From: an uncultured Methanoregulaceae archaeon
Lineage (GTDB): Archaea > Halobacteriota > Methanomicrobia > Methanomicrobiales > Methanospirillaceae
NCBI GenBank assembly: GCA_963705255.1
Contig: OY970061.1
Coordinates: 1,696,001 to 1,760,000 of the forward strand
Direction of reading: 5' to 3'
Length of the DNA: 64,000 nt
The position numbers and the translations under genes are program-made. Position 1 is the first letter of the stretch, and each line of letters starts with the position of its first letter. A model generated the notes under the pieces. It did no database searches. It was not told the DNA's origin and worked only from the letters and a program-made list of their open reading frames with translations. This document shows positions 21,336 to 63,271 of the stretch, in pieces.

Positions 21336-21341
21336 TAGCAT

Positions 21342-28943: not shown

Positions 28944-28955
28944 CCGGGTTTTCAT

Positions 28956-44981: not shown

Positions 44982-45082
44982 TGAAAGTATCAGCAGATTG
45001 TCGGGATTATTGCGGGGATGGAGGGTGAACAGGAGAATCTTACATCCCTTATTCAGATTTTTAATAGGCAACTATTGTTTTC

Positions 45083-45117
45083 AAAAACTTTTATATTGTC
45101 AACATGCATACGTTGAC
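45083..45117 (+). promoter_or_regulatory. BRE/TATA promoter with a palindromic operator
   Basis: AAAAA-C-TTTTATAT followed by GTCAAC-N8-GTTGAC (45098-45117). Confidence 0.65.
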
Positions 45118-45131
45118 TTATGCTTCTGCCC

Positions 45132-46576: not shown

Positions 46577-47673
46577 CGACTCGCGTCTCTGAAGTAATCC
46601 GGGGCTGGCTGGGCTGGTGCCCGAACAAACCGGTTATGCGCACAGCCCCGGCGATCCTCGTAGTTCCTTCGGCCACGGTAAATCCCGCGCAACCATCCGG
46701 CGGGGCCGGAGGGTCCGACAGGATCCGGCGCGGGATCGGTATCGCCACGGGGAGTATAAAGACCCTGATCAGGGACAAACGGCTGCTCTGGTTCTCGTTC
46801 CTGGCCGGCCTCGTCATCCTCTTCCTGATCGCGGCAGAAGCATGGATCGTTGCACAGAGCGGAAGCGCCATGCCATTCCTTGTATCTATTCCACTGGGAG
46901 AATCTTTCCTGGTGTTTGATACGCGGATCTTCCTCCTGCAGGTGATCTCTCTCTCCTGCTGTACCATGATCCTGGCAGGGCTGGTCCAGTACCGGGCCCG
47001 TGAAGCCGTTGCAAAGCCCCTCACGATCCGGGAGGCATTCCCTGCGATCAGCCCCTATTCCGGCACCCTTGCAGCCCTTTCGATCGCGATGGCATTCGCC
47101 GGGACTCTTCTTACGGCAATCGCTACCCAGACCCAGATTGTCGGGAAGATCGTGTTCAGCATCTCGATGGCTGTATTCTACCTGCCCTATGCGTACTACC
47201 TCCCGGACGTATTCAGTTCGGCGCTCTACTTCTCGGCGATCATCATGGCCATAACAATCCTCCAGTTCCTGCTGGCCCTCTATGTCGTACCGGGCATCGT
47301 GCGGGAGAATAAGGGATTGCTTCCTGCTCTTGCCGGGTCCGTTGCACTCATGAGAAAGACATGGCGCGAGATGCTGGGCTGCACCCTCGTCTTCGGGGCA
47401 ATCGTTCTTGGGGTCGCTGCCATAGCGCTCGTGATCGGCCAGTCGCCCCTGCTGCTCAACCATGACTACGACTTCTTCCTCTCCCCCTCGCGCGGACAAC
47501 TGCTGATGACGGTTGTCTGTTATGGTTTCATCCTTGCCTGCGGGATCCTGATGGCGGTCGGCTCCACAGTTATGGGGATAGCGGTCACGGACCTCTATGC
47601 CTGCGGAAAGACAGGTCCGGTTCACCGTATGCCGGAAACCGATACTCCCATTGTTGCGGAGCCCGCCCGATGA
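46573..47673 (+). CDS. Paralogous multi-TM protein with N-terminal GWCP motif
   Basis: SEVIRGWLGWCPN; MRKTWRE; similar to the preceding gene. Confidence 0.75.
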   Translation: MTTRVSEVIRGWLGWCPNKPVMRTAPAILVVPSATVNPAQPSGGAGGSDRIRRGIGIATGSIKTLIRDKRLLWFSFLAGLVILFLIAAEAWIVAQSGSAMPFLVSIPLGESFLVFDTRIFLLQVISLSCCTMILAGLVQYRAREAVAKPLTIREAFPAISPYSGTLAALSIAMAFAGTLLTAIATQTQIVGKIVFSISMAVFYLPYAYYLPDVFSSALYFSAIIMAITILQFLLALYVVPGIVRENKGLLPALAGSVALMRKTWREMLGCTLVFGAIVLGVAAIALVIGQSPLLLNHDYDFFLSPSRGQLLMTVVCYGFILACGILMAVGSTVMGIAVTDLYACGKTGPVHRMPETDTPIVAEPAR

Positions 47674-48427
47674 GCCGGGTCTCTGAGGTAATCCGGGGCT
47701 GGCTCGGTCTGGTGTCCGGACAGAATAGTGGCGCCGCATTCCAGAACATTTCAGGCAGACAATCCCGTGTCCTCGATACCTATCGGCAGCCGTGGATATA
47801 CGATGCAGGACGTGACCATGGATTATGGTTCAACCGGAATGTCGATACCGCTCTTTACCGCCATCCTTACCGGCACAATTGTGGGATTGTTCGCAATCAT
47901 GAAATACGGCCTTTTTGAAACCTGGTCTCAACTTGGATTGATAATGGTGAGTATCTTCATTCTTGGTGTTGCTGTGCGGATGGTTCATCAGGATATTAAA
48001 AAAGTGATTATCGAATTTAACCCGGATGCTATCACCGTCCGGTGGCCCCTCTTCAGGCCTGTCATCATTTTAAAAGACGCGATAACAACTATCGAGGTCC
48101 GGAAAAATATCCACCATTCGCACCGGTGGCTTTCTCGTGGTGCGATTGCGATCTTTTTCGTTGGTGTCATCCCTACCATTCTGTTCAGCGGGCAATCACA
48201 GTACCTTTCTCGGGTGATTTCCCGGGTCTCTTTCACGGTTTTCGTCACATACTATCTCAGCTGTCAGCGTGTTTTTCGGGTCGCTGTTCTATCGCGGGTA
48301 TATCCGATCGCGCTATTCACAGGTGCTTGCGATATCCACGAACAACAAGAAAATCGTCGGCTTGTTTGTCGATGATCCCGGCAGGATATCGGAAATGCTG
48401 TCGAAGTGGCGTGAAGTGGGAGTCTGA
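47670..48427 (+). CDS. Third GWCP-motif membrane protein, indels near 47710 and 48260
   Basis: Removing one base gives MSRVSEVIRGWLGWCPD, joining ORF 47728. Confidence 0.65.
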
Positions 48428-48429
48428 AC

Positions 48430-49043
48430 ATGTATCTTTCGCAGACAATCCGGAAATATCTCGGCTGGTGCCCGCGAACCCACGCGCTGCCGCTACATCT
48501 TCCGGTCCTGAAAGATAATTTTTCCGAAGACACTCCGGCACAGGAAGGCGGAATCCCTGCACGTACCGGATGGTCACAGCGGTACAGGAACCAGGTACTT
48601 CTCATGGCGGTTGCTTTCACTCTGGCCGCCTTCCCGGCAGTGACTTTTTTCCAGACTAACGATCCCACGAGACTGATGATGTACATCGGTACAATCACAG
48701 GACTTGGGTTGTTTGCCTTCTTTGGGCGGTGGCTCTGGAACAGTTTCGAGATGCTGGCAAAAGGTATGACGATTCAGACCGGGCCGGGGAGTACATCATT
48801 TCGTTCTTTATCGCCGGTGCAATCCCGCTCGGTGTCGTTCTCCTCATCGGAGCATTGCTCGCACTTATCCCACTTGCAGGTGCTCTCGCGTTCCCCGCGT
48901 TTGCTACGGGATTTGCCTTCGTTCCGTGGTACGTTCTTGCGCTGATACTACTGTGGGAACGACGAACCGGGTGCACGCTGATGTTCGACAAAAAAACCCG
49001 TTCATTCACCGCAGCGAGGTGCTCCGGCAATGCATATGACTGA
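48430..49043 (+). CDS. Fourth GWCP-motif membrane protein, indel near 48790
   Basis: SQTIRKYLGWCPR; TM helices; WERRTG tail in the shifted frame. Confidence 0.7.
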
Positions 49044-49284
49044 AACCATCCGGCCCCATCAACCAGGCCGGTAAGAGTCAACTCAACAATCCATCTCATC
49101 CTTATCGCCTGTATAGTATCTGTTCCGATAACTGCCCTGCTCGTATCGGCCGTCTCATCTCCGGGAGATGCAGTCTGAGATTTTCCAAAATCCCGCGAAG
49201 TCATCAGAACCTACGACCTATACATATATATTTCAAATCCCATATTCCTTGACAGAAGAATTTTGATCTGTCTGAGAGATTTCG

Positions 49285-52200
49285 ATGAAATCGGTGCTCT
49301 ATGTTGACGACGAATCCCCACTTCTCGATCTATGCAAACTCTTTCTTGAGAGGACCGGAGATTTCACTATCGATACGCACACATCTGCACAATCAGCGCT
49401 CGAAGCACTAACAAAAACCTCCTTCGATTGTATCGTTTCCGACTACCAGATGCCCGAAATGGACGGGATCCGGTTTCTGCAGGCACTCCGTTCCCAAGGT
49501 GATACCACTCCTTTCATTATTTTTACCGGTAAAGGCAGGGAAGAGGTGGCCATACAGGCACTGAACAGCGGGGCAGATTTCTATCTCCAGAAAGGAGGTG
49601 AAGCAAAAGCGCAGTTCATCGAGCTTGCCCATATGATCACCCAGGCAGTTCGCAGAAAAAGGGGAGAGGAAGCCCTGCGGGAGAGCGAGAAGCGGTATCG
49701 CAACGTTGTCGAGAGCCAGACCGAATTTATCGTCCGGTTCCTCCCTGATGGCACGCATAAGGTTGCAAATGCCGCCTACTGCCGGTATTTCGGGAAATCC
49801 TGCGAAGAGATGATCAATTCCCGGTTTATCCCAAACATCCAGGAGAAGGATAAAGAACGGGTACGACAGCACTTTGTATCCCTCACGCCGGAAAACTCTG
49901 TTGCGACCATCGAATACCGAATCGTTATGCCAGACGGCAGCGTTCGCTGGCAGCAGTGGAGCGACCGGGCGATATTTGATGCAAACGGTACCCTGCTTGA
50001 GTATCAATCGGTGGGGCGGGATATCACTGAACGCAAACGGGCCGAAGAGGAACTGCTCCGCAAGAACGAGGAACTCCAAGCTGCGTATGAAGAAGTGACC
50101 ACTGCAGAAGAGGAACTCCGGCAAAATTATGATGAACTGGTGGCAATGGAAAAAAAGTTGCGTGAAAGCGAGCAGCGGTACCGGAATGTAGTCGAGGACC
50201 AGACCGAGCTCATCTCACGATTTCTTCCTGATGGTACGCACGTCTTCGTGAATGAGGCCTATTGCCGGTATTTCAATAAAAAGAGGGAGGAGATCCTTGG
50301 GACGAAATTTATTCCTGAGATCCCTGAGGAAGACCAGTCATTTGTCAAACAGCATTTTGCATCACTGAACCGGAATACACCGGTTGCAATGATTGAACAC
50401 CGTATTGTCATGCCGGGTGGTCAGGTACGATGGCAACGGTGGAGCGACCGGGCGATCTTCGATGCAGATGGTCAGGTAACCGATGTACCAGTCGGTCGGC
50501 CGGGACATTACCAGTCGAAAAGAAGCCGAAGAGTTGTTACTAAGGAGTGAAATACGCTATCGCAGCCTCTTTGAAGGAGTTCCCGTGGGGCTCTACCGTA
50601 CGACTCCTGCAGGACAGATCCTGGATGCCAACCCGGCACTTATGCACATACTGGATTATCCGGACCGTGAATCGCTGCTGGCGATCAGCGTTCCTGATCT
50701 GTATGCAAACCCTGAGGCTCGCAAGGAGTGGCAGGCCCGTATCGGACACGAAGGGACAGTGCGCAATTTCGAAGTGCAATTCCGCACGTGTGACGGGATC
50801 ATCATCTGGGTACGGGAAACCAGCAAGCTGAGTCCGGGATACCAGCGGCCAAATAGTGTACTACGAAGGGATCCTGGAGGATATCACCGAGCGCAAGCGA
50901 GTGGAAGAGGCGCTTTTGGGACGGGAGATCCAGCTGACCAATGCGATGAATCTCGCAAACCTTGTGAACTGGGAGTATGATATCGATTCCAGAATGTTTA
51001 CATTCGATGACCGGTTCTACGAGCTGTACGGCACTTCAGCCGAAAGGGAAGGAGGCACCCTCATGCCTGCAGACATTTATTTTCGGGAATTCGTCCACCC
51101 GGACGATTTACCGACTGTTCTTAATGTGGTACGTGCAGTACAGGAAACGATCGATTCCCAGCATACCGCACAGCTGGAGCATCGCATCATCCGCCGGGAT
51201 GGCGAAGTGCGCGACATCGTTGTCCGTCTGACAGCAATCGTGAACAACGAGGGGAGGATTGTCCGGCACTTTGGAGCAAACCAGGACATTACTGACCGGA
51301 AGCGGGCCGAAGATGCGCTCCGGGAAAGCGAGGAGAAATACCGTGCGTTCTTCACCACATCCATGGATTGCGTGTTCATCACGTCGATTGACGGGAGATG
51401 GTTAGACTTCAACGATTCAGCTGTCCGTTTCTTCGGCTATGCAAGCAGGGATGAACTGCAGAAAGTCAATGTCAGGGACCTGTATGCGAATTCACGTGAC
51501 CGGAAACGCCACCTTGCCTATATCAGAGAGAAGGGATATTCAAAAGAGTACCCGGTGAATCTGAAGAAGAAAGATGGCACGATAATCAACACGCTCATAA
51601 CGACCGTTCCGCGAAAAGACAGGGATGGCATAATCATCGGTTTCCAGGGTACGATACAGGACATCACTGAAAGTAAGCAAATCGAAGAGGAACTGCGTCG
51701 CAAGAACGAAGAACTCCACGGAGCATACGAAGAATTAACCACGACCGAGGAGGAGTTGCGGCAGAATTATGACGAACTCAGCAAAGCAGAACGGAACCTG
51801 CGCGAAAGTGAGGGGAGATACCGGGTCATTTTCGAAAATACCGGGACTGCCACGGTCCTTGTCGAAGAAAATACCATCATAAGCCTTGCCAATGCCGAAT
51901 TCGAACGTCTGTCGGGGTATTCAAAGGAGGAGATCGAGGGGAAAAAGAGCTGGACGGAATTCGTGGTGAAGGAAGATCTGGATCGGATGTCCGACCAGCA
52001 TCGCCTGAGAAGGGAGAGACGAGAGGCCGCCTTAAAGCATTACGAGTTCCGTTTCATCACAAAGTCCGGCGATATTCGCGATATCCTCCTGACTGTTGAC
52101 ATCATTCCGGATTCGAAAAGAAGTGTTGCCTCCCTGATGGATATCACCGAACCTAAATTAGCAGAAAATGATCTGAAGCGTAAAAATGAAGAGCTGAATG

Positions 52201-53329
52201 CAGCCTATGAACAGCTGACCTCCACTGAGGAGGAACTCCGCCAGAATTACGAGGCGCTGACCAGGAGTGAGCAGGCACTGCGCTCAAGCGAAGAGCGGTA
52301 TCGCTCGTTATTCAGGAATATGCTTGATGGATTTGCATATTGCAGGATGATCTTTGAAAAAGAACGTCCTGTGGATTTTACCTATCTCATCGTCAACAAC
52401 GCGTTTGAAAAATTAACAGGATTGAAGAATGTCACCGGGAAAAACGTCACGGAAGTAATTCCCGGCATTCGGGAGTCCAACCCGGAGATATTCGAGATTT
52501 ACAGCAGAGTGGCGATGACAGGCAGGCCTGAGAGGTTTGAGGTTTACCTGGAATCATTGAAAATCTGGCTGTTTGTGTCGGTCTATAGTGGAGAACGCGG
52601 ATATTTTGTTGCAGTATTTGACAATATCACCAAACGAAAGCAGGATGAGGAATCTCTCCGGCATGTGAACCGGCAACTCAACCTCTTAACCAGCATTACC
52701 CGGCACGATATCCTGAACAAGACTACCGTACTGCTCGGATATCTTGATCTGGCAAAAATGGAATCCCAGATCCCCGTCAAACTTGCCGGGATGCTGGAGA
52801 AACTCGAAACTGCCACGCGGGCGATCCAATCCCAGATTGAGTTCACCCGTGTTTACCAGAATCTCGGGACACACGAGCCTCAATGGCAGAATATCAACAG
52901 GGCCATACCGCTGGAACTCGTTCCTGATACTGTCAGGATAACTACCGATCTTCCTGCAGTCGAGGTCTATGCAGACCCGATGCTCAAAAAAGTCTTTACT
53001 AACCTGCTGGACAACTCGCTGCGCCACGGTGGAAAAGTTACGACCGTGAAGGTCCTCGGGAATAAATCCCCGGAAGGCTTCATTATATTCTGGGAGGATG
53101 ACGGGATCGGTGTTGCAGCCGGAGAAAAGAAAAGATCTTCGATCTTGGGTACGGCAAAAACACCGGGCTTGGTCTTTTCTTCGCGAGGGAGGTTCTCACC
53201 ATCACCGGTATTACCATCAGGGAAACGGGAATACCGGGAAAGGGCGCACGATTCGAGATTACCGTTCCACCGGGGAAATACCGGTTCACCGATGTCGTGC
53301 CGGCACGTAACCCGGACACCATGACCTAG
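49285..53329 (+). CDS. Large REC + multi-PAS hybrid histidine kinase, indels near 50485, 50830 and 53135
   Basis: LYVDDE, SDYQMP, ~7 PAS domains, ITRHDILN, NLLDNSLRHG, DDGIG. Confidence 0.88.
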
Positions 53330-53341
53330 GCAGGTACCGCT

Positions 53342-53962
53342 ATGGAATTTACCAAAGTTCAGATGGATGCAATGCAGGAACTCGCAAATATCGGTGCTGC
53401 TCATTCAGCCACCACGCTCTCGCAGATGCTCAATACCCAGATCGACATGAGTGTGCCAGAGATGAATGTGGTGGATATTGCAAAAGTTGGAGATTTTATC
53501 AGCGATGACCTGGCCACCATGGTCGTCTTTGAGCTTCAGGGAGATATTCCCCATGGGGGCTATTTAATCCTGCATTTTCCCCGGGATTCTGCGATCCTGA
53601 CAGCAAATATTATCCAGGGTTCCACCGGGACTAATCAGCCGTTTGGCGAGATGGATCAGAGCGCCATTCTTGAGGTGGGAAATATTATGATCTCCTCTTT
53701 CCTGAGTGCTGCCTCGGATCTCCTCGGTTTCATCATGCTGCCTTCCCCACCGATGCTCGTAGTTGATATGGCACATGCCGCAATCACATCATTGATCGCC
53801 CAGATGGCTGTCGATGTAAATGATGTAATACTGTTCCGGGTCAAGCTCACCTCCGATGAGTACCATATTGCAGGCAATATCCTTATTTTCCTTGAGCTCG
53901 CCACGCTGCGAAAAGTCGCCGCAAGGCTTGAAGATCTGACAAAACCCCCATCCATATCTTGA
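53342..53962 (+). CDS. cheC: Chemotaxis phosphatase CheC
   Basis: DAMQELANIG and SAILEVGNI motifs. Confidence 0.9.
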   Translation: MEFTKVQMDAMQELANIGAAHSATTLSQMLNTQIDMSVPEMNVVDIAKVGDFISDDLATMVVFELQGDIPHGGYLILHFPRDSAILTANIIQGSTGTNQPFGEMDQSAILEVGNIMISSFLSAASDLLGFIMLPSPPMLVVDMAHAAITSLIAQMAVDVNDVILFRVKLTSDEYHIAGNILIFLELATLRKVAARLEDLTKPPSIS

Positions 53963-54083
53963 GAGAACCAGGTTGATCCGTTTGCCTTGGTTGAGTAATC
54001 CGCTTTCGTTGCGATAGCCCCGTTTCCCCCATCCAGACTCCTCCATCTCACTTGTTAACTACTGAAATACGTCATGTACCTGT

Positions 54084-54636
54084 ATGCAGGGCAGCCCCGA
54101 GGATTACCGAAAATATCGTTGCTTCAGTAAAGGTAGCCGATCATTTGGATCTCTCCGTGCTTGCCTCACATATCAAGGATGCGGAATACAACAAGAAACG
54201 GTTCCCCGGCGTTGTGATCAGGATGAAAGATCCCAAGATTGCCGCGTTGGTCTTTGGATCTGGAAAAGTTGTGCTCACCGGTGCAAGGAGTATCGACAGT
54301 CTCTCGACCGGATTAACCATTCTCGGCGACCTGCTTCGCAACCTTGGCATCGACATTCCGGGAAAACTTTCCTCCACGATCCAGAACATTGTCACTTCTG
54401 CAGACCTTGGAACGGCAATCAATCTCAACAAGATCGCGGTCGGTTTCGATCTTGACCGGATCGAATACGAGCCCGAACAGTTCCCCGGTCTTGTCTACCG
54501 GTTGGAAAACCCCAACGTTGTTGTTCTTCTCTTTGGTTCGGGAAAATTGATCATCACCGGTGGCAGGGAGCCGGAAGATGCGAAAAAAGCGGTCGATAAG
54601 ATAATCTCGGACCTTCGCGGTATTGGTTTGATGTGA
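54084..54636 (+). CDS. tbp: TATA-box binding protein paralogue, start region frameshifted near 54108
   Basis: ENIVAS, YNKKRFPG, FGSGKVVLTG, QNIVTS, YEPEQFPGLVYR. Confidence 0.93.
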
Positions 54637-54930
54637 ATAGTTTAATGCTCTTTTATGATTTTTGTAAATTTATCTCTATGAAGAAGTCATACCAGGACGA
54701 TGAAGTGGGTGAAAAGCAACTGCAAATATTGTCTTCAAGGTCTTCTGTATTTGCCACATCAGGTTTTATCCTTGCGGCTCCGGGTCCCGGGATCCCCCTC
54801 TGGTAGGGAAAATATATATCTGGATATAGAGTACCCTATTGCCCCTCAGCCAGACCCGCTCCCTCAGAGGAGTGTTTTTCTTGCTGCAGTATTCGCCGAG
54901 AGGGCAATTTCAAAAATCGGGGGAACTGTA

Positions 54931-55188
54931 ATGCAGTTTGTACTATGGTTCAGGTGGCAGCCTGAAAAAACCCGGGAATTACTCGAGCTCTGGAAGGAGT
55001 TTAAGTATCCCAAGGAGGTTACATTGATCCAGCGGTATATCATTATCGGCCGGCACACCTCCTTTGCGGTGTTTGATGCACCGGATGTGGAATCTATCAT
55101 GAAGATCACTGCTCCATTCAGTCCGTTCGGGGTTGCGAAGATAGCCCCGATCATGCCGCTGGAAAAGGCAATCGCAATGGAACTCTAA
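54931..55188 (+). CDS. DUF3303-like small protein
   Basis: MQFVLWFRWQPE...IAPIM pattern; 85 aa. Confidence 0.7.
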   Translation: MQFVLWFRWQPEKTRELLELWKEFKYPKEVTLIQRYIIIGRHTSFAVFDAPDVESIMKITAPFSPFGVAKIAPIMPLEKAIAMEL

Positions 55189-55806
55189 TTTTTTTGTAGG
55201 TATTCATCTGGAAAAAATTTTCCAAATCCTGGTGCCAGATCTTCATTTTCAATAAATGTGCAGGGTGATCCCAATATTGTTGGAGCTTCATCTGGGGGAG
55301 GCTACTTGATTCCCCCAGTAGTTAATGAAGATATAAAAGAGGAAAATCACACGTTAGTTCAAGGCTCAATTCCAACAAATGAGACGATTTTCTTCGGTTA
55401 ATCTGAATTAAAGGAGAGGGCCAACCGGGTGAATGGACCGGTCGAGGATGGACTTGGATCCAAAGATCGGATCGATCGGTTCTGAAGCATTGTTGACTTT
55501 GTGATTTAGTTCGCGATGAAGAATATCTTGTAAAGTCACGAAGATACACCAGAACCGTATTTTCTTACAAATAATACGTACAATCAGATGAATCAGCACT
55601 CAAAACAACGATAGATATACGATCGAGACGACCATATTATACAAATCATTCGCTCGCAACGAACCAGACCTGTCGGCCCTAGGGAACGCCGCTGACATGA
55701 TTACAGAAGAAATTGAGGAGATCTCATTTGAGTGCCTGGAGAGGTTGAATCCCGTGCCCGATTCAGATGAGTGCGGTCTGAAAAATTTGTTCCGGAGAGA
55801 ACAGCA

Positions 55807-56394
55807 ATGTCAGATGATGAATTAATCGAGATGTACGGGAAGATGAGTATCGCACTCGATCGAATCGAAGAGTGCCATGAATTTACGCCGCTCATTCCGG
55901 AAGTGAGATCAAACCTGGTTTTTGCACGAAAGGAGGCTAGAACACCGGAAGATGTTCTTGCAATAGATGGCAGGATAACCGTTGTAAACCATCTGCCTCA
56001 TGCCGCCGGTAGACCCCGGTTTGGGGCATCGAGCCATATGGCGCGTCTCATTATTGAGATACGAGAATATAGCTCATCCTTCCGTGCGGGGATCAATTTT
56101 GCAAATACCCCAAATCTCACCCAGTGGCTGGCAGAATACTGCAAAAAAAACAGCTGGACGTTCAGTGTCATAGACCGGCGAAATGAACCGGAGAACATCA
56201 GGCAGGCAGAAGGAGCGTCCATGGAATGGAAAGTGCGGGAGGCCATTCGCGCCGCCGGAGGGAGAACGCCAAAGATTTTTTATGAGACCGGTGCCATCGG
56301 CAAAGAACCCGTCTCCGTACTTATTGGAAGAGATCCTCTCGAAATTGCGGACCAGATATGCACCATAGCGACATTATACCATGACTCCCGGTAA
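55807..56394 (+). CDS. Stand-alone ThiN-domain (thiamine-phosphate synthase-like) protein
   Basis: LIPEVRSNL, DVLAIDGRI, FGASSHMAR, GKEP. Confidence 0.8.
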   Translation: MSDDELIEMYGKMSIALDRIEECHEFTPLIPEVRSNLVFARKEARTPEDVLAIDGRITVVNHLPHAAGRPRFGASSHMARLIIEIREYSSSFRAGINFANTPNLTQWLAEYCKKNSWTFSVIDRRNEPENIRQAEGASMEWKVREAIRAAGGRTPKIFYETGAIGKEPVSVLIGRDPLEIADQICTIATLYHDSR

Positions 56395-57424
56395 TCCAAA
56401 AATCGGAAAGATCGACCATGCATTGTTTAAAGAGTTTCTCCTCCACCGTCTTGGGAAAGATGACCCTTCCGTTTTAGTACCGCCGAGAACGGGAATAGAT
56501 GCCGGTGTGATTGACCTCGGGTATGGAAAGGTCCTGATCATCGCTGAAGATCCGATCTTTACCGTCCCAAAACAGCCTCTGGAGATGTTTGGCTGGTACG
56601 CCGTGCACATCGGAGCGAGCGATGTGGCCGTTATGGGGGTGAAACCACAGTATATGACCTACTCGCTCCTTCTTCCCCCGGAAACAAGTGATCGTGACTT
56701 CGGGACTATTGTCGATTCTATCCACAATACTGCTGTTGAGCTTGGTATTGCGATTGTTGGGGGACATACCGGGTACTATCCTGGTTTTACCTCTCCAACC
56801 ATCGGGGGCATTACTGTCTTTGCTATCGCTGATAAGGACAACTATGTTACCCCGGCAGGAGCACAGCCGGGCAATGACGTGATACTGACCAAAGGGCCTG
56901 CCATAGAGACTGCGGGTATTCTTTCCGTTCTGCGCGAGGCGGATCTGCACGGGAAATATCCGGATTCTCTTATCAAAAATGCCCAGGCACTCTGTCGGCA
57001 AATGAGCGTGGTAAAGGATGCGCTCACTGCGATGGCTGCCGGGGGGGTTACGGCAATGCATGATGCAACAGAGGGCGGAGTGATTGGCGGTCTTTTTGAG
57101 ATCGCAGATGCAAGCGGTGTCGGGATGGTTATTGACGAGTCCCGCTTTGTGTACCCAAAGGAAGTACAGATGGTGTGCGAGGCATTTGCCATCGACCCGG
57201 TCACTGCAATTGCTGAAGGATCTCTCCTTATCACGGCAAATCCGGAATATTCGGAAAAAATTATGGCTGCACTTTCACGTGCCGGTATCGATTCCTCAGT
57301 TATTGGCAGAGTGATAGAAGATCCGGATGCCAGAGTCCTGAAACGACTGAACGGAGAGGAAATTCCCCTTGCAATACCAGCACAGGATCCGTTCTGGCCA
57401 GTGTTTTTTGAGGGGCTCAGGTAA
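56381..57424 (+). CDS. AIR synthase-related (PurM-like) family protein
   Basis: IGKI, GIDAGV, EDP, SDVAVMG, VGGHT, AMHDATEGG. Confidence 0.88.
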   Translation: MTPGNPKIGKIDHALFKEFLLHRLGKDDPSVLVPPRTGIDAGVIDLGYGKVLIIAEDPIFTVPKQPLEMFGWYAVHIGASDVAVMGVKPQYMTYSLLLPPETSDRDFGTIVDSIHNTAVELGIAIVGGHTGYYPGFTSPTIGGITVFAIADKDNYVTPAGAQPGNDVILTKGPAIETAGILSVLREADLHGKYPDSLIKNAQALCRQMSVVKDALTAMAAGGVTAMHDATEGGVIGGLFEIADASGVGMVIDESRFVYPKEVQMVCEAFAIDPVTAIAEGSLLITANPEYSEKIMAALSRAGIDSSVIGRVIEDPDARVLKRLNGEEIPLAIPAQDPFWPVFFEGLR

Positions 57425-57691
57425 TCTGCTGCTGTTGTGTTTACGGTTGGTGACTACTATTTCACCTCGTTAAAATTTTCTAGCCAACCGCCAACGCATC
57501 AGGACCCCGAAGAATATGGTGCGGAGTCCATTGTAGTATCGTCTCACCCGCATGATGCGGACTCCCGTACAGCGATTCCGAATTCCGGAATTGTACGAAC
57601 GGTTTACCGTTGGAGGGCGATCTGGTCTGTTGACAATGGAAGAGCACTTCTGACCACAAAGATTTTCTTGGCACAATTTTACCTGAGCTTT

Positions 57692-58213
57692 ATGCGAACC
57701 AAGTGTGGTAGTAGCTGGAAGAGATCGCTTCTTCCGATACTTTTCGCTGGTTTGTTCATCCTTTCATTCCCTGTGCCGGCCGCGACCTCAACACCACCAT
57801 TCTTCCCGGTGCTCAGCATCACCGCACCAGATGCTCCCGTGCCGGCGGGATCCGACCTGATCATTACGGTCCACTGGGAGAGGGACTACAGTTACTGGGT
57901 TCACCCTGATCAGGTATCAGTCACCCTGTACGCACTCCCTGAGGGAACCACATATGCATCCTGGCTTCTCGACCGGCTGGAGAGTCCCGGAAAACCGGTG
58001 GGAGAAAACGCCGATTATTCCCTGACCGTCCCGGATAGGGAATTGCCCGCCGGGGCATTCATGATGATCGCGGCTGATCCGTTCAGCGGCGCGATCGCAC
58101 GAAAAGCCGTTGTACTGCATGGGTCCAAGACTTCACAGGCCGACATTCCGGCAACCTCCATCCAAAAGGATTTTCTGCACATGCCAAAGCTGAACCCCCC
58201 GCTTTTTTCCTGA
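57692..58213 (+). CDS. Secreted hypothetical protein
   Basis: Signal-peptide-like N-terminus. Confidence 0.55.
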   Translation: MRTKCGSSWKRSLLPILFAGLFILSFPVPAATSTPPFFPVLSITAPDAPVPAGSDLIITVHWERDYSYWVHPDQVSVTLYALPEGTTYASWLLDRLESPGKPVGENADYSLTVPDRELPAGAFMMIAADPFSGAIARKAVVLHGSKTSQADIPATSIQKDFLHMPKLNPPLFS

Positions 58214-58399
58214 TGCCACACGAAGTACCGCAGCTGCAGTCGAAAGGAACTTCAGTGGATGCCGGCCAAATAATCAGCATTCGTTAAGATTATGCACGAG
58301 TTCATCTACTGTCATCCCCTCCGGAAGACCCCCAAAGGACTGGCAATGGCGCCACATCGCTAAAAGTGATGGAGATGAACGAGTCTACCTGACTGCACC

Positions 58400-58493
58400 G
58401 GCCCCTTCGCATCACGCTTCGCAGTTTCCCCGTCACTGAGTACGTAACACACGCAGGCACTCAGTGACTCCGCTCGCTTCGCGTGGTCGGGGA
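58400..58493. repeat. REP-like nested hairpin between convergent genes
   Basis: GTCACTGAGT...ACTCAGTGAC inside CCCC..CACGC...GCGTG..GGGG. Confidence 0.5.
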
Positions 58494-58553
58494 TCTCCGA
58501 TTTTTCAACTCGTAAAAATTCCCTGTCAACCGACAACGCATCAAAGCTGTTTT

Positions 58554-60881
58554 TTATTTTTTCCTGGAAATTACATGTGCCCTTTCCGGTACCCTGATAT
58601 CAAACCTGGCGCCTTTTCCCGGTTCACCGGTCTCCTGGATGGACATCCCGGTAATGCCCAGGATCTCCTTCACGAGGAAGAGCCCGAACCCCCCGCCCTG
58701 ACCACTCCCCCTCTCGAAAATCCACTCCTTGCGGTTGTCAGGTATTCCGATGCCATCGTCTTCGATGGTAAGGATACCATCATTGTCGGCCGTTCGGAAT
58801 GAAACCACGATCGTAGTGATGGTCTCGCCATATCGGACGGCATTATCCAGGATGTTGTAAAGGACCTTCTGGAAAAGAGGATCGGCATACACAGAGAGGC
58901 CATCCAGTCTTGCATTCACCGTGATCTCCTTCATATCCACCTGGGATAACACCATCGCAAGTGCAGTTTCCACATCCTGCCATTCCGGGGCCTTCATCCG
59001 CATATCCTGATAATCCCGGGTGAATGCCAGGTGTTTTTCAATTATGGCCATGGCCCCATCGATCTTTTTGATATATTTTTGCAGAGTCATCGGATCCTTT
59101 GTTTCTTTGAGGAGACCGAGATAACCATTCATGGCGGTGAGTTTGTTCAGGATGTCATGGCGGGTAACTGAAGAGAGGAGAGCGAGCTTGGTATTGGCAA
59201 GCCGGAGCGCTTCTTCAGATTCGATCCGGGATGAGACATCCCGCAGAATCGAGATGATCCCGCTCGGATTCCCCTGGGCATCATGAAGCAGGGAGCAACT
59301 GATATCAGCAAAAAACAATGAGCCGTCTTTCCGCATGATCCGGTATAATGACGCACAGGGTTCTCCAGTCCCGATAAGCTTCCCGATGTGCGTTCGGGCA
59401 CTCTCCCGGTATTCCGGGGCAACCCAGTCGAGAACTGCTGTCCCGTGAACGGCCGTTTCGTCCCCTGCTTTCAGCAGTTCAACGGTTTTCGGGGATGCGA
59501 ACCTGATCTTTCCTTCGATATCCGAGATTACTATGCCATCCGGTGATGCATGGAACAGGCTGCGATAGAGCTCTTCACTCTCTCTGAGAGCATTTTCTAC
59601 CAGATTCCGTTCAATTGCCGAACCGATAAGTGCGGCTGAAGTTTTCAGGGCATCAAGTACACCAGGGAGCCACTCTTTCTTTGCCGCGGTCTCGAACCCA
59701 ATAACTCCCCAAGGTGCATTCCTGACCAGAATGGGCACGATTGCTGTATTGCAATGCTCTTTTGCCGGTGTTTCCCCGCTCATGCCCGCAAGGGAAACAC
59801 CTCCCGAATAAATAACGATCTCCCCGTTCCTCAGGCGTTTTTCATTATCGCTGTATCCCATTTCCCGGTAAGGAATCAGGTTGTGCCGGGGATTATCGAT
59901 CCATGGTTCACCACCTGGCTTCACCCACTCATACGCCAGCCTGGCAAGGGGACGATCGGGAGTCCCGGATGGAGTGTAGATGTAAACACGGTCGACACCA
60001 ACTGCCTCTCCGAGAGCGCCGAGCGTTTCAGAGATCATCCTGTCGAGGTCCCTGGCACCAATGAGTCTTCCCGCTGATATCGCGATTGCCTGGAGGATTG
60101 CATCCCGTGACCGAAGTTCCTTTTCGTTCCGTTTGCGATCCGTGATATCGAGTGCATAGGAGAGAAAAAAAGATTTTCCTCCGGTCTCGAAGATATCTCC
60201 GGAGAAGAGTTTGTTCATCCGTTCCCCATTCTTTCGTACGCATTCCATTTCGACATTCCGGATCTTCTCTCCCTTTTTGACCGTCGCGATCATCCACTCC
60301 TCAAATGAGGGATCTCCGAAAAGCCCCAGCTCCATCGCCGACCTTCCGATCACTTCATTTCGCCCGAAGTCTGAATAATCGAGAAACACCTGGTTGACAT
60401 CGATAAAGCGACCGCTCGGAAATTCACAGATAGCCATTGCGATAGGGTTGATTGAGAATGCCGTCGAAAATTTCTCCTCGCTTGCCCGGAGTGCCTGCTC
60501 GGTTTGTCTTTTCTGGACTGCTTCCTTGATCTTGTGTATGAGCTCTGCGAACTGGGCTTTTGGATCTCCCCCTTTCTGCAGGTAGAAATCGGCCCCGTTG
60601 TCAAATGCCTGGATAACAATTTCCTCCCGCCCTCTTCCGGTGAAGAGGATGAACGGGATACGGCCATGATGCTGGCGAATGTATTTGAGAAATTCAATAC
60701 CATCCATATTTGGCATCTGGTAATCTGAGACGATCGCATCATACGTTGAGGATGCAAGTATTTCCCGGGCGTCGAGCGGGGACGTGCAGGTCTCAACAGA
60801 GAATTGTCCCGTCTTTTCCAGGTACAATTTCGCAATTTCCAATAAATGCGATTCATCATCTACATACAGTATTGAGATCAT
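58554..60881 (-). CDS. REC-PAS-GAF-PAS hybrid histidine kinase
   Basis: LYVDDE, DRVYIY GAF, VTRHDILN, DNAVRYG, DDGIG. Confidence 0.9.
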   Translation of the reverse strand: MISILYVDDESHLLEIAKLYLEKTGQFSVETCTSPLDAREILASSTYDAIVSDYQMPNMDGIEFLKYIRQHHGRIPFILFTGRGREEIVIQAFDNGADFYLQKGGDPKAQFAELIHKIKEAVQKRQTEQALRASEEKFSTAFSINPIAMAICEFPSGRFIDVNQVFLDYSDFGRNEVIGRSAMELGLFGDPSFEEWMIATVKKGEKIRNVEMECVRKNGERMNKLFSGDIFETGGKSFFLSYALDITDRKRNEKELRSRDAILQAIAISAGRLIGARDLDRMISETLGALGEAVGVDRVYIYTPSGTPDRPLARLAYEWVKPGGEPWIDNPRHNLIPYREMGYSDNEKRLRNGEIVIYSGGVSLAGMSGETPAKEHCNTAIVPILVRNAPWGVIGFETAAKKEWLPGVLDALKTSAALIGSAIERNLVENALRESEELYRSLFHASPDGIVISDIEGKIRFASPKTVELLKAGDETAVHGTAVLDWVAPEYRESARTHIGKLIGTGEPCASLYRIMRKDGSLFFADISCSLLHDAQGNPSGIISILRDVSSRIESEEALRLANTKLALLSSVTRHDILNKLTAMNGYLGLLKETKDPMTLQKYIKKIDGAMAIIEKHLAFTRDYQDMRMKAPEWQDVETALAMVLSQVDMKEITVNARLDGLSVYADPLFQKVLYNILDNAVRYGETITTIVVSFRTADNDGILTIEDDGIGIPDNRKEWIFERGSGQGGGFGLFLVKEILGITGMSIQETGEPGKGARFDIRVPERAHVISRKK

Positions 60882-61136
60882 ACGGATCGGGGGATAGAAT
60901 ATATTCTTTTTTTATGTATGAGTTCATGGCTTTTCCTATTCGCTTCCGACAAGTATTTACAAAGAAGACCTCGGTGAACTGATCCCCGATTCTTTTTATG
61001 CACATAACCGGTGAGGTGACGAAATAATGGCTCTTGGAGAATTCCTCAAAGAATGCTGGTGACTTTCTCGCAGGCATCGGAAAAGGATAACGTTCAAAAA
61101 AGTATTGAACGGTGTCTTTTCTTGCGTGTCGCCGTG

Positions 61137-61478
61137 CTAATCCTGATCCCGGAACAGCGCCGGGTTCTGCCTGCGGATCCACCAGCGGCGGGCGAGCACA
61201 ATTCCCACAACCACAAGGACGATTGCCACGGCACCGATGATAATCGAACTCACCGGGAGCCCGCAAGAACCGGCCGGTGCCGGTGCTGATGCCGGAACTG
61301 CGGTGGTCTCCGTAGTTACGGGAACCGTGGTCCGGGCAGTTGTCGGGTTCTGCAGGTGCAGGTTTCCGGCCTGGGTTACTGAATCCCCGGCACAGGTGTC
61401 GGCATCCTTTGCAGAAACTCCCGATATGAGCACGATGACGCAGACCAGGATTACCAAACTTATTCCGGAGACTTTCAT
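61137..61478 (-). CDS. Small T-rich membrane protein with RRWWIRRQNPALF tail
   Basis: Signal peptide, T/P-rich linker, TM helix, basic tail. Confidence 0.7.
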   Translation of the reverse strand: MKVSGISLVILVCVIVLISGVSAKDADTCAGDSVTQAGNLHLQNPTTARTTVPVTTETTAVPASAPAPAGSCGLPVSSIIIGAVAIVLVVVGIVLARRWWIRRQNPALFRDQD

Positions 61479-61519
61479 AGTATACCGGTAAGCGGATTTC
61501 GGTATCCGCCACTTAATGT

Positions 61520-61582
61520 TTCTAACGCGATCGTCTACCGGTCAGGGGTCCGGTAGAGAGTTGCGTTAGAATCGTTATATAT
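61520..61582 (+). promoter_or_regulatory. 52 bp imperfect palindrome followed by a TATA box
   Basis: TTCTAACGC...TCTACCGG..CCGGTAGA...GCGTTAGAA, then TTATATAT at 61575. Confidence 0.65.
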
Positions 61583-61603
61583 CGGGTAACGAAATTCCAA
61601 TTC

Positions 61604-61957
61604 GTGGACAGCCGGGGGGTTGTCCCGAAAAGAAATGATGGGTTCTCCAAGCGACGAACTTCGTTGAACCCGGTCCACCCGCAGGCATGTGATCATTATC
61701 GTAAATTCTTATGAGGATTTTCCTGTGTCCGGGTTGACAGCAAAGGAAGTGATAGCATAAACTTCACATACGGAAAGCAGAACAAAACTGGCGGTGTCCG
61801 GCAGGATATCGTTCTGGTTAACGAAGGAGAGCGGCCACATACACCTGACCGGGTACTCCGGAAGACGGAGATTCTCGGCACGGGCATCCGGTCATCCTAC
61901 AGGAAAAAACCGGTGAAACCGGGTGGGGATGATGATGGCAATTAGGAGAGCCGCCAG
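61604..61957 (+). ncRNA. Candidate large structured non-coding RNA/leader of unknown family
   Basis: Starts ~25 nt after the TATA box; many local and long-range complementary segments; no credible ORF. Confidence 0.5.
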
Positions 61958-62004
61958 TGAATCGGCCGGCAGAAATCAGCCCGGGAAGCGGAGGCGGGCA
62001 CAGA

Positions 62005-62274
62005 ATGCCGAAGAGTAAATCCGTGACTGAATCTGGTATTCCGCTCTATCTCCTGCCCTGGGCAATCGCACGGCAGATCACCCGGATCGGGGACTCGGTG
62101 TACCGCATCAGCGTGAAGAGGACGCACTGGCACCACTACAACGCCTCGGTCCGGACGAAGACGCTGCCCCGCGAGCTCGCGCCGGGCAGTCTCGCCGGAT
62201 TCTCGCTGGCCACACCGCCGGACACCGGCAATCGCGGGATGGCGACAGGGGCCACCGGGGGAAGATCCGGATGA
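62005..62274 (+). CDS. Small basic hypothetical protein
   Basis: GGAGG RBS; ATGA overlap with the next gene. Confidence 0.6.
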   Translation: MPKSKSVTESGIPLYLLPWAIARQITRIGDSVYRISVKRTHWHHYNASVRTKTLPRELAPGSLAGFSLATPPDTGNRGMATGATGGRSG

Positions 62275-62742
62275 CACGCGGAAGGCCGCCGGACCAGGCG
62301 CTCAAAGAAGCAAAGGCCATCGCACGGCGGCAGGGAAAGCTCTGCGAGAATACCCGGGGACGGGGCCTGCTGTACGACTTCGCCATCCACCTCGCGTTCC
62401 TGACGATCTACATCCAGGTCCGGCGGATGAAGACGGCTGCCGAGACCGCGGACGACATCCTCTCCGTGTGTGCCCGCGACATCGCACGGATCCGCCGGGT
62501 CCCGGCGACTGCCGTCCTCATCCGGGAGCTGTCGGCCCGGTCGCCGGCCGGGGCATGGCGGTACTTCCTCGGTACTCGACGACCTTCTCGTGGAGATCCC
62601 GGCCGAGGCTATGCCGGAGAACATGGCCGGCACCCGGCTGCTGCGGGAAGATGCACCCGGGCCGGACCGGTCGTCCGTGCCAGGAGGAGCTCCGGTGGTA
62701 AGGGGAGGCTACTACTGCCCGTTCATGGTACCGTCGAAGTGA
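62271..62742 (+). CDS. Degenerate PD-(D/E)xK (YraN/Hjc-like) protein, indel near 62571
   Basis: MTRGRPP...YDFAIHLAFLTIYIQVRR (D-x12-Q-x-R)...RELSARSPAGAWRYFLVLDDLLVEI after correction. Confidence 0.55.
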
Positions 62743-63162
62743 GCCCTCCCACATCCTTTTTTCAAGGGTTCTGGGAGATACAATCCTCCTCAAAAATAAC
62801 TCCTCAATTCAGCCCCCGTTTGCCGAAATAAGCCCGATTTGAAAGGTCGGTTTTCCGGGTATCGCGTTTTTTGGCGAATTACAGCACAGTGATTTTGAGA
62901 TAAGGCTGTATTGGGGGTATTTTGCTCATTTGGGGGGCATTCTAGCCTCTGAAAAATGTCTCTTTATTGCCTTTTGGATGAGCGATTGCTGCCCAATGGC
63001 GGCAGGAGGCTGGAGAATATTGAGGAGCATCAGACTCGAAAGAGGAGAAGACCGAAGGTCTTCGACTGAATGCCGGAGGCATTCTTCGAACGATGATCCG
63101 GGAGCTGAGATCCTGTGGAAAAGGCTGTCCGGGAAATGGGAGGGGGTGGGATCTGGGTGCTG
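62729..63162 (+). repeat. Dispersed ~300 bp repeat, copy 3 (115 bp insert at 62982-63096)
   Basis: Colinear with copies 1 and 2; insert flanked by a GATGA direct repeat. Confidence 0.9.
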
Positions 63163-63271
63163 AAATTTGAGGGTCAAGCCCACTCCCGACAAAGAACAGT
63201 ACGATAATTTATCCAACCGTGATTGATAGTATTTTCGTCGGAGTCAGCGTGCCGGACCTGAAAGGAACAGA

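Follow-up and report, generated by a model that had tools for sequence, protein, structure and literature searches.

A conserved DNA tail behind a nuclease-fold gene of Methanoregula recurs in 5'-truncated copies beside strain-variable DNA and may be a recombination anchor

The stretch of DNA analysed here, referred to as the window, comprises 64,000 nucleotides of an uncultured Methanoregulaceae archaeon (GenBank assembly GCA_963705255.1, contig OY970061.1) and corresponds to positions 1,696,001-1,760,000 of a single-contig genome of 2.60 Mb with a G+C content of 54.6% (labelled G000). Towards its right end lies a locus in which a promoter and a long non-coding leader precede two coupled open reading frames (ORFs), ORF1 and ORF2, which are in turn followed by an AT-rich segment that we term the tail. 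An earlier note on this DNA, made from the letters alone, had pointed out a palindrome, a TATA box, a self-complementary non-coding leader, the coupled ORFs and the tail, and had proposed that they form one transposase-less mobile unit, possibly a ribonucleoprotein nuclease system, with 5'-truncated copies elsewhere. All of these parts proved to be present, at the following positions (window coordinates unless marked as genome positions):

61518-61572: imperfect palindrome TTCTAACGC...GCGTTAGAA, between divergent promoters and directly upstream of the TATA box
61575-61582, plus strand: TATA box TTATATAT
61602-62004, plus strand: non-coding leader, ~400 nt
62005-62274, plus strand: ORF1, 89 aa, its stop overlapping the start of ORF2 (ATGA)
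62271-62742 (stop), plus strand: ORF2, overlapping ORF1 through the same ATGA, with a frame change near 62571 in the assembly
62643-63200, plus strand: tail copy 3, full-length, with the end of the ORF2 coding sequence at 62643-62742, its AT-rich core at 62743-63165 and then ~35 nt in which similarity is weaker
62979-63094: nested hairpin repeat of 116 bp, REP/BIME-like, inside tail copy 3

The locus was compared with 61 Methanoregula genomes in genus-wide searches and with G037, a close relative found through the tail search, which is 92-97% identical to G000 and syntenic with it over the core genes around the window; 30 relatives were too divergent for nucleotide synteny, except at paralogs. 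Metagenomes contributed contigs L108 and L109, the sole two related loci returned by a metagenome locus scan, and contigs near-identical to the window locus from four runs (X1-X4). BLASTN searches with the tail gave E-values of 1e-45 to 1e-66, far past chance, and confirmed its recurrence in the same orientation at 20846-21181 and 23145-23474. The genome holds nine copies, not three, at genome positions 541187, 608989, 1071197, 1237029 (minus strand), 1716846, 1719145, 1758643, 1763583 (tail 4) and 2144262, of which 1716846, 1719145 and 1758643 are window positions 20846, 23145 and 62643. Copies 1 and 2 have the same orientation as the window tail, with identities of 83% and 69% over a gapless register of 218 nt:

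19939-20838, plus strand: gene for a presenilin-type membrane protease, directly upstream of tail copy 1
20843-21215, plus strand: tail copy 1, 5'-truncated, starting at the stop of the presenilin-type protease and found at the same site in G037
23145-23500, plus strand: tail copy 2, 5'-truncated, starting with the final four codons of ORF2 and its stop

The nine G000 copies were turned into a profile, which retrieved 35 copies and one fragment from G000 and 23 loci of five other Methanoregula genomes, six genomes in all. With a single-copy DNA query, the tail was matched in 15 of the 61 genus genomes and was multi-copy in G037, G061, G031 and G050.

The common 3' end that had been ascribed to the copies is real, and is better given as GAAATGGC(A/G)GGGGG(T)GGGATC, after which ~35 nt of weak similarity follow. 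The 5' starts differ and fall within ~190 nt around the ORF2 stop (window ~62610-62800). The match of 13/14 (TACCGTCGACGTGA versus TACCGTCGAAGTGA) that links the start of tail copy 2 to the last ORF2 codons is exact as quoted, and the longest solo tail (genome 2144262) aligns back to 62643, ~100 nt inside ORF2, in a stretch that is non-coding at its own site. On translation, the 5' end of tail 4 in G037 reads GGYFCPFLVPSK and that of G061:C16 reads GGFVCPFMATSK, those of G061:C144 and C210 read EGFVCPFTVPS.., and the copy at genome 2144262 yields ..DDVPGPDRSSV.. and GWFYCPFI.., with frame breaks. In every tail copy that reaches it, TGA, TAA or TAG stands at the same aligned position. Because ORF2 codons and an aligned stop are retained, the solo tails are copies, shortened at the front, of the 3' end of ORF2 and its flank, and the truncated copies that had been proposed are thus borne out by both the alignment and the translated 5' ends.

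The same was seen in a second ORF2 subfamily (genome 135808), whose own tail of ~500 bp (genome 136110-136610) starts ~70 nt before the stop and has two front-truncated copies, at genome 2559587-2560092 and 1170657-1171039 (minus strand), both ending at 136609/136610. The tails of the two subfamilies are unrelated (local alignment score 25, against 22 +/- 3 for shuffled sequences). That the 3' end of ORF2 is copied together with its flank is thus true of two independent subfamilies, which is the strongest point in favour of the idea put forward in the earlier note. The linkage of the tail to the ORF family, which had also been proposed, stands for one subfamily and fails for the wider family. 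In the PGPD...CPF subfamily, ORF2 is followed by the tail in each of the five members found (the window, its G037 ortholog, G061:C144, L108 and L109), the ORF2 of L108 and L109 being 64% and 54% identical in protein and their tails having nhmmer E-values of 2e-54 and 3e-27. Across the wider family in G000, the tail is present at 1 of ~15 loci, that of the window, and two others carry inverted tail fragments of 45-70 nt ~200 bp downstream; in five other genomes, it lies within a few hundred bases of 3 of 49 ORF2 matches, one of these being a 35-nt fragment. A single genome can hold truncated tails that match different ORF2 alleles, as in G061, where copies L047 and L048 have an L108-type end; this suggests that truncated copies arrived with foreign DNA.

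Within the tail, invariant blocks of 20-30 nt (GTTTGCCAATCGGAGCCCGATTTGAAA; TCGCGTTTTTTTGCGAATTATAG; AAAAACGTCTAATTGTTGCCTTTTGGAT) stand in AT-rich sequence (44% G+C) that is 70-85% identical. RNAalifold, run on the 35 copies and on both strands, returned a consensus of ~0 kcal/mol and no structure, and this, together with the invariant blocks, indicates that the tail is conserved as primary sequence. Two other identities were considered for the tail and dropped: a structured RNA gene, owing to the lack of a consensus structure in the 35 copies, and a small-protein gene, since the ORF frames differ between copies and are broken by the 116-bp insert. A miniature inverted-repeat transposable element is disfavoured, since the terminal inverted repeats are weak and inconsistent: two window copies have arms of 13-19 nt that are 74-85% complementary, whereas three other copies have none to match. 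The 116-bp repeat is an independent insertion into the tail. It is also found in tail 4 (genome 1763897-1764011), is missing from copies 1 and 2, has tens of short matches on both genome strands, and is skipped exactly in a contig of run X2 (L001 6978-7095, with L001 6979-7094 corresponding to window 62979-63094), which leaves a clean empty site. Joints at L001 5891-5989, 5911-5984 and 6854-6951 were set aside, on account of short sides or an origin in paralogous loci.

Comparison with G037 associated the tails with strain-variable DNA. Five of the nine G000 copies (tails 1, 3 and 4, and those at 541 kb and 609 kb) occupy the same sites in G037; tail 2 lies inside DNA that is missing there, the copies at genome 1071197 and 2144262 are not at the corresponding sites, and the copy at 1237029 lies at a synteny break. 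In four comparisons, strain-specific DNA of 2-12 kb starts beside the 3' end of a tail. An 11-kb segment of G000 (21295-32301), not in G037 and partly of low G+C, begins ~115-160 bp past tail 1 and carries an AbiE-like pair, tail 2 (39 nt past the stop of the AbiEii-like gene), a regulator with a helix-turn-helix (HTH) and an M78 peptidase domain, a serpin and a gene matching the phage protein family phrog_24372. G000 also has 2.3 kb directly after the 541-kb tail, the two genomes diverging just past GAAATGGCAGGG, and 7 kb past tail 4, against 0.7 kb in G037. The features concerned are:

21249-23106, plus strand: cargo between tails 1 and 2 (46-nt repeats, AbiEi-like gene, AbiEii-like nucleotidyltransferase gene)
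21249-21340: two tandem 46-nt repeats with palindromic TATCACTGATA boxes, directly upstream of the AbiEi-like gene
21342-21575 and 21622-22329: AbiEi-like gene, split by a frameshift
24644-25729, minus strand: 361-aa protein, phrog_24372 (E 3.5e-68)
26162-27145: RmrA-like HTH and M78 peptidase regulator, in the 11-kb segment
30369-31547, minus strand: serpin, in the 11-kb segment
genome 1764245-1766152, minus strand: dynamin-family GTPase of 635 aa with a PADLOC LeoA/LeoBC match, within the 7 kb past tail 4
genome 2144750-2144893, 2148418-2148540, 2153964-2154086 and 1071134-1071208 (minus strand), and G037:C12 ~36890-37030 (a variable site): rve-type transposase remnants

The AbiEii label is a lead only, because its match (E 0.006) is below the Pfam cut-off. 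In L109, only tens of bases separate the ORF1-ORF2 tail from the downstream ortholog (78% identity) of the G000 gene at genome 1771162-1773512, and since the two adjoin there, the whole 12 kb from tail 3 to that gene is additional in G000. Where the L109 tail meets the core gene, G037 has cargo, tail 4 and 0.7 kb, and G000 has the same plus 7 kb. Thus the arrangement of tail 3, cargo and tail 4 is found in G000 and G037 and is unoccupied in L109, and that of tail 1, cargo and tail 2 is found in G000 only. Cargo is enclosed by direct tail pairs at two places in G000, with spacings of 2.3 and 4.9 kb, and such pairs are likewise present in G037, G061 and G031; by our arithmetic, nine random copies in 2.6 Mb would give ~0.14 pairs within 5 kb by chance. 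At G061:C144, the genes between the tail of ORF1-ORF2 and the next tail are a Kup transporter gene and a PAS gene, so that both cargo and context differ from those in G000. Directly upstream of the tail at genome 1071197 lies a gene for a TIR-domain protein (genome 1070234-1071088, minus strand), in the place of which G037 has a different gene of low G+C.

The protein encoded by ORF2 consists of an N-terminal domain of ~118 aa and a short, subfamily-specific C-terminus (..PGPDRSSVPGG..GGYYCPFMVPSK*). Homology searches accepted 196 of 214 candidates at E <= 0.001, and the named ones were all Methanoregula hypothetical proteins, none with a Pfam domain. G000 itself has ~15 paralogous loci, with fragments or split copies at genome 632552, 829004, 1307733 and 1535118. 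In a library clustered at 50% identity, the family comprised 507 clusters, and in the best 150 of these 507 the domain takes up an N-terminal or nearly N-terminal position in proteins 87-327 aa long; the long C-terminal extensions of the family are variable, disordered and of low complexity, with no Pfam match. At the sequence level, ORF2 matched no Pfam family at E <= 1 (PF01870 Hjc included), and the best match of its profile among the sequences of the Protein Data Bank (PDB) was only E 0.19. An AlphaFold2 (AF2) model was obtained for an intact paralog (genome 2468176; predicted local distance difference test score, pLDDT, 83; predicted template modelling score 0.78), with helices (H) and strands (E) at H7-21, E23-26, E37-40, E45-52, H60-75, E83-90 and E96-101, in alpha-beta-beta-beta-alpha-beta-beta-beta order. 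Foldseek returned four matches at E <= 0.001, all to Hjc of A. fulgidus (best 2wcw_C, E 5e-4), with template modelling scores of 0.44-0.52 (best 0.52); lower matches were to other Hjc chains, to the R2 retrotransposon endonuclease domain and to HincII. In a protein atlas of language-model neighbours, ORF2 lies near the Hjc/Mrr_cat clusters (0.93-0.94). The restriction-endonuclease-like fold expected for ORF2 was thus recovered in the model, and ORF2 is predicted to have an Hjc-like fold of the PD-(D/E)xK superfamily.

The active-site motif is another matter. The D-x12-Q-x-R motif (YDFAIHLAFLTIYIQVR) that had been likened to YraN/Hjc-type spacing is present, and it sits in a predicted Hjc-type fold, but the ExK glutamate is replaced by an arginine throughout the family. 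In an alignment of 52 sequences, R49 and V50 of the ExK strand (R-V-x) are conserved at 90% or more, position 51 varies and D36 falls below 90%; the invariant residues of the family are E86, L87, S91, G94, W96, R97 and F99, plus A18 and G22. Judged by spacing and secondary structure, the D and the ExK of Hjc would correspond to D36 and to the R49-V-x51 strand. The ORF2 family therefore appears to have the restriction-endonuclease fold without the canonical D...(D/E)-x-K motif, and its nuclease activity is putative. The remark in the earlier note that this copy may be degenerate was misleading, because Q-x-R is a variant of the family-wide R-x-(K/S/R) and because the frameshift is missing from near-identical metagenome contigs. 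The extra G at 62571 is left out in the contigs of three of the four runs (X1, X3 and X4), record 4 of X1, of 1257 nt, having 5 differences and 1 gap relative to the window, and once a G is dropped from the GG, WRYFL runs on into VLDDLLVEIP, in keeping with the family consensus. The frameshift is probably an assembly error or a private mutation and the gene intact (~156 aa) in the population, although the metagenome evidence is not fully independent because one run may be the source sample.

ORF1 has a conserved core of 60 aa, IPL.LLP...GD.VYRISVKRTHWHHYN.SVRTK.LP.ELAP, with the invariant stretch YRISVKRTHWHHYN, and a disordered C-terminus. Homologs (206 of 207 candidates) are typically 87-89 aa, all annotated 'hypothetical protein' and from Methanoregula or unnamed sources, and ORF1 is present in 48 of the 61 genus genomes. 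Its AF2 model (mean pLDDT 74, with 87-96 in the blocks of the first 50 residues) has beta-alpha-beta-beta order, and a search of this structure against the PDB gave nothing at E <= 0.001, the best being dodecin at E 0.069. Neither ORF1 nor ORF2 had a match in Pfam, PHROGs, NCBIfam or PADLOC. An AbrB/SpoVT-type antitoxin was considered for ORF1 and dropped, as the model is beta-alpha-beta-beta and there was no such structural match. All four ORF1 copies of G000 adjoin ORF2, yet only 4 of ~15 ORF2 loci have ORF1; in the five other genomes, by our reading, 8 of 13 ORF1 matches lie directly upstream of an ORF2 match and 1 is adjacent in reverse order, and ORF1 accompanies 8-9 of 49 ORF2 matches. 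A toxin-antitoxin pair is disfavoured because most ORF2 genes have no recognisable ORF1: the genes overlap and are multi-copy, as such pairs are, but ORF1 has no known fold, the pairing is inconstant and PADLOC gave no match.

The leader and the promoter region before ORF1 comprise the following:

61137-61478, minus strand: divergent neighbour gene, 113 aa, with a signal peptide and a C-terminal membrane anchor
61602-61727, plus strand: conserved 5' leader motif, ~125 nt
61606-61625, plus strand: leader hairpin P1, 5'-terminal, 8 bp
~61637-61646 with 61665-61674, plus strand: leader helix P3
61728-62004, plus strand: leader extension, restricted to ORF1-type loci, 4 copies in G000
genome 330475-330602, 337345-337437 and 327466-327588 (all minus strand) and 2462776-2462899: leader copies before secreted-protein genes in G000 (others are loci L074-L102)

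The neighbour protein had no significant Pfam match; the 5' end of its gene and the shared promoter recur with the leader at genome 2057807 and 2462687. The palindrome, a likely operator site to judge from its position between the promoters, is kept in the copies at genome 2057, 2456 and 2462 kb, and the copy at 2467 kb retains the right arm only. Conservation of the leader starts ~25 nt 3' of the TATA box, a spacing by which the transcription start was placed. The whole leader folds with a minimum free energy of -148.6 kcal/mol (z = -2.78; 1 of 100 shuffles equals it). Its first ~125 nt are present in eight G000 copies, four before ORF1-ORF2 and four before secreted-protein genes, and were matched in 20 of the 61 genus genomes, with a maximum of 13 copies in G031. 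An nhmmer search found 37 instances in G000 and 29 fetched loci. By our reading, the downstream ORF begins with the signal peptide ..LLALLLAAMAMVPMVSA in at least 17 of the 34 instances with a listing, and the same peptide follows out of frame after five more; the remainder are ORF1-type (10), an oxidoreductase-like gene (1) and one instance without downstream sequence. The secreted proteins behind the leader are of ~200-410 aa and have the signal peptide LLALLLAAMAMVPMVSA in common.

RNAalifold predicts P1 and P3 in the leader, with compensatory changes in the second helix: pair 47-77 is UA in 18, CG in 8 and UG in 8 instances, and another pair is AU in 22, GC in 4 and GU in 3. After extension of the helix by hand, 92.5% of its cells were paired, against 90.9% in shuffles (1 of 500 reached the observed value) and only 23-62% with slid partners; 16 cells were changed on both sides, a number matched by 2 of 500 shuffles. 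These alignments lend the helix moderate covariation backing. Neither leader nor tail had a gathering-score match in Rfam 15 within the region, 61450-63250 giving chance-level matches only (E > 3), and the leader is a candidate for a new family of cis-acting 5' leaders. The sole gathering-score Rfam match in the window is the S15-Methanomicrobia ribosomal protein leader RF03137 (9932-10008, minus strand, 70.3 bits).

The earlier note had counted the leader RNA as part of the unit, and here its proposal failed. The leader was not found upstream of ORF1 at any of four related loci (G037, L108, L109 and G061:C144), which keep ~80 nt upstream of ORF1 instead, and the family stands mainly before secreted-protein genes. 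At these leaderless loci, ORF1 is preceded by a short coding stretch, ..F(E/D)..I..F(P/R)QRRW(S/L), the stop of which overlaps the ORF1 start (..FPQRRWS at G037:C1:62620-62700, L108 ~2660-2740, L109 ~2665-2745, and in G061:C144), and this stretch may be a third, very small coupled ORF. Conversely, the leader extension is 82-92% identical to genome 2057807-2058241, 2456356-2456746 and 2467529-2467890, and these three leader-bearing paralogous loci are without a tail. From the G000 leader into the start of ORF1, identity to the three paralogous loci is 82-92%, but it is only 31-36% for ORF2, and the leader arrangement of the window is therefore a recombinant. By its distribution, the leader is a separate module, outside the ORF1-ORF2-tail unit. 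Two observations on the surroundings may be added. A segmental duplication (genome 2057880-2060727 and 2467529-2470970, 92-97% identical) runs from the right arm of the palindrome through leader, ORF1 and ORF2 and ~1.8 kb further, the two ORF2 proteins being identical. A 17-kb segment of the window (44969-62085), not in G037, lies between the ortholog of genome 1740969 and ORF1, and holds the leader, sensor kinases and, at 49676-52258, coding sequence with repeated domains of families D2-D4.

Taken together, these distributions suggest that the region is a mosaic of independently distributed modules and not one element. For the tail, we tentatively favour, at somewhat less than even confidence, the reading that it is an att-like recombination anchor, a landing pad for gene capture. 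ORF1-ORF2 is the conserved operon at the core of the region, and the last ~100 nt of ORF2 together with the ~330-bp AT-rich, unstructured flank would act at the DNA level as the anchor. Accessory DNA would enter immediately past the 3' end of a resident tail and would often bring, at its own far end, a partial ORF2 3' end and tail, and the outcome would be direct repeats with one common 3' end and differing 5' starts. Repeated events, horizontal origin of the incoming copies, rearrangement and decay would account for the solo truncated tails that border variable regions, and recombination at the tail would be the cause of the strain differences described above. The promoter, palindrome and leader of the window would have been grafted onto ORF1 when it recombined with its paralogous loci. 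The pattern is what site-specific integration at the 3' end of a gene would leave: an intact 3' end, a truncated far copy, a common 3' boundary, retained stops and an unoccupied relative. ORF2, with or without ORF1, is no more than a candidate actor, put forward because it is always beside the tail. Several points weigh against an att-like anchor. A number of the G000/G037 differences could equally be deletions in G037, which retains the first 46-nt repeat at the edge of the 11-kb segment and none of its genes. Most tails are far from any ORF2, which itself has the family-wide arginine in place of the canonical acidic residue of ExK. No recombinase, integrase or transposase domain was found in any cargo examined, and the single tyrosine recombinase match (PF00589) of the genome, at 2540082, is far from all tails. 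For none of the tails did a clean empty site or a target duplication come to light, and flanking tail copies are ~70-83% identical, where a recent attL/attR should have an identical core. The tail pairs of G031 and G061 enclose ordinary genes (TrmO, DUF2124, DUF134, Kup K+ transporter), and because this cargo is ordinary and the G000 Kup ortholog, at 786 kb, has no tails, the tails may have landed around resident genes. Finally, remnants of an rve-type transposase C-terminus (..YYNYLRPHQGIGG..IPINL.GNRWETMIGLA) stand directly beside two tails, so that ordinary insertion sequence (IS) activity may explain part of the variability.

The original idea, that leader RNA, ORF1, ORF2 and tail are one transposase-less mobile ribonucleoprotein nuclease element, is now very improbable. 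The parts do share one orientation in the window, leader-ORF1-ORF2 is found at three paralogous loci and ORF2 has the predicted nuclease fold; however, the independent distribution of the modules contradicts it, the leader being absent at 4/4 related ORF1-ORF2-tail loci, missing a tail at the three leader-bearing paralogs, mostly preceding secreted-protein genes, and heading ORF2 genes of 31-36% identity behind near-identical leaders. Nothing indicates a ribonucleoprotein system, and the tail has no conserved RNA structure. More can be said for the tail as a non-autonomous mobile repeat born of the ORF2 3' flank, through reverse transcription of read-through transcripts or one-ended rolling-circle replication, although we consider it unlikely. 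Truncated copies outnumber full ones by 8:1 in G000, with similar ratios in G037 and G061; the common 3' end and differing 5' starts, which the second ORF2 subfamily repeats, would follow naturally; tails flank ordinary chromosomal genes in G061 and G031; and the genome has one RVT_1 gene. Truncation of the LINE type would, however, spread the 5' starts over the 1.2-kb unit instead of confining them to ~190 nt near the ORF2 stop, the 3' end of the tail is G-rich with no A-rich or distinctive terminus, the terminal inverted repeats are weak and inconsistent, and the sharing of sites by 5 of 9 copies with G037 speaks for little recent movement. The RVT_1 gene, the only one of the genome (528 aa), lies beside a short Piwi-domain gene and near a KilA-N gene (L110, genome 313001-321000), in what looks like a defence island unlinked to any tail. 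HUH transposases of the Y1_Tnp type had no match in the genome, with a control that was positive in 6 of 14 genomes, and neither had Y2_Tnp, for which the control was silent everywhere, so that the latter search is uninformative. The RNA-mediated or rolling-circle spread suggested earlier thus found no enzyme to drive it within these searches.

Alternatively, the tails could be passive relics of segmentally duplicated ORF2 plus flank, the coding parts of which were subsequently overwritten through insertions and deletions, and which coincide with variable DNA in plastic regions, a reading that we also hold to be improbable. It would account for the multi-copy state of ORF2, with its fragments and split copies in G000, for the 2.2-3.4 kb segmental duplication with leader-ORF1-ORF2 at 2057880 and 2467529, for the IS remnants beside two tails and for the decayed coding remnants in the copies at 2144 and 1763 kb. 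Neutral relics should not, however, retain long invariant blocks at ~70% overall identity, nor would they place the 5' boundary repeatedly in a narrow zone near the stop codon, set strain-specific junctions at the very 3' end of the tail or form direct pairs in four genomes. We further envisaged the tail as a transcription module, in which ORF2 transcripts would end at two T-runs and a further transcript would begin from a BRE/TATA-like box, which is a distinctly unlikely explanation; no better is the variant in which the downstream product is an unstructured small RNA or read-out and copies are kept as terminators or promoters. The middle block TCGCGTTTTTTTGCGAATTATAG does consist of a T7 run and a box, GCGAATTATAG, which we take to be BRE/TATA-like by comparison with archaeal promoters and oligo-T terminators, and in at least four cases a gene in the same direction ends where the tail starts or shortly before it (the presenilin-type and AbiEii-like genes, ORF2 and the gene of the HTH regulator at 2144210). 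The genes downstream are inconsistent, some convergent and some co-oriented, and neither the retained ORF2 codons nor the strain-specific DNA at tail ends is explained. A bolder form of the capture model has ORF2, possibly with ORF1, binding the invariant blocks and promoting strand exchange between tails, as an integrase-free capture platform. We regard this as doubtful and quite unlikely, and equally so its corollaries, that the classical ExK glutamate was lost, that each ORF2 subfamily has a cognate tail and that the system gathers defence and accessory genes.

ORF1, ORF2, the leader and the tail had no match in the curated families of Pfam, Rfam, NCBIfam, PHROGs and PADLOC, and the papers listed by a search for mobile elements in Methanoregula, judged by titles and the starts of abstracts, contained nothing on these families or repeats. 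On these databases and this literature search, ORF1, ORF2 and the structured leader represent three undescribed families. Little is known of the routes by which peat and sediment methanogens acquire accessory and defence genes, and the tail provides a tag that marks kilobase differences between close relatives and is attached to one subfamily of a nuclease-fold gene. If the tag is a recombination site, it would offer a handle on hotspots of gene flux in Methanoregula metagenomes and would be a candidate for a new recombination system; if the tails are passive relics, they form a lineage-specific repeat family of local interest. The analysis also corrects a probable assembly frameshift in ORF2.

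Several of the modules can be set beside known systems. The leader resembles the structured 5' leaders by which mRNAs of abundant surface proteins are stabilised, in that it is long and conserved, has a hairpin at the 5' end of the predicted transcript and stands before secreted proteins; in contrast to these, it is not in Rfam, it also heads ORF1-ORF2 operons and its function is putative. The 116-bp insert is, like the REP/BIME repeats of bacteria, short, hairpin-rich, present in many copies on both strands and variably present between strains, but its family is archaeal and no RAYT-type (Y1) gene was found in the genome. With Hjc and other PD-(D/E)xK proteins, ORF2 shares a modelled alpha-beta-beta-beta-alpha-beta core, the best structures being Hjc of Archaeoglobus, Pyrococcus and Sulfolobus. 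It differs from them in that the ExK glutamate is an arginine in at least 90% of sequences, the lysine position is variable and the invariant residues lie in a later strand, and in being multi-copy (~15 loci per genome), with variable disordered C-termini and named matches in Methanoregula only.

As for the tail, the fixed 3' end, variable 5' end and excess of truncated over full copies are shared with LINE/SINE and IS91/ISCR elements; unlike in these, the 5' ends lie near the stop, there is no A-tail, no linked reverse transcriptase or HUH gene was found and no target duplications were seen. Integron arrays, such as those with the attC repeats of Vibrio cholerae, resemble it in that accessory genes, here a toxin-antitoxin-like pair and defence-like genes among them, are each followed by a repeat in one orientation, but no IntI-type integrase accompanies the tail, which is without hairpin symmetry, forms arrays of at most 2-3 copies and contains coding 3' remains within the repeat. 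Genomic islands at the 3' ends of genes (tRNA, tmRNA and protein genes) differ in several respects: the tail repeat is ~300-450 bp long with copies of 70-83% identity, no integrase lies in or near the cargo, many solo tails are far from the 'target', and the target is a multi-copy accessory gene. They have in common with the tail the direct repeats in which the 3' end of a gene and its flank recur with one 3' boundary and different 5' extents, the intact gene on one side and the truncated copy on the far side, and an unoccupied form, here in L109. By analogy, then, the tail is akin to the att duplications of the 3' ends of genes and bears a looser likeness to cassette repeats.

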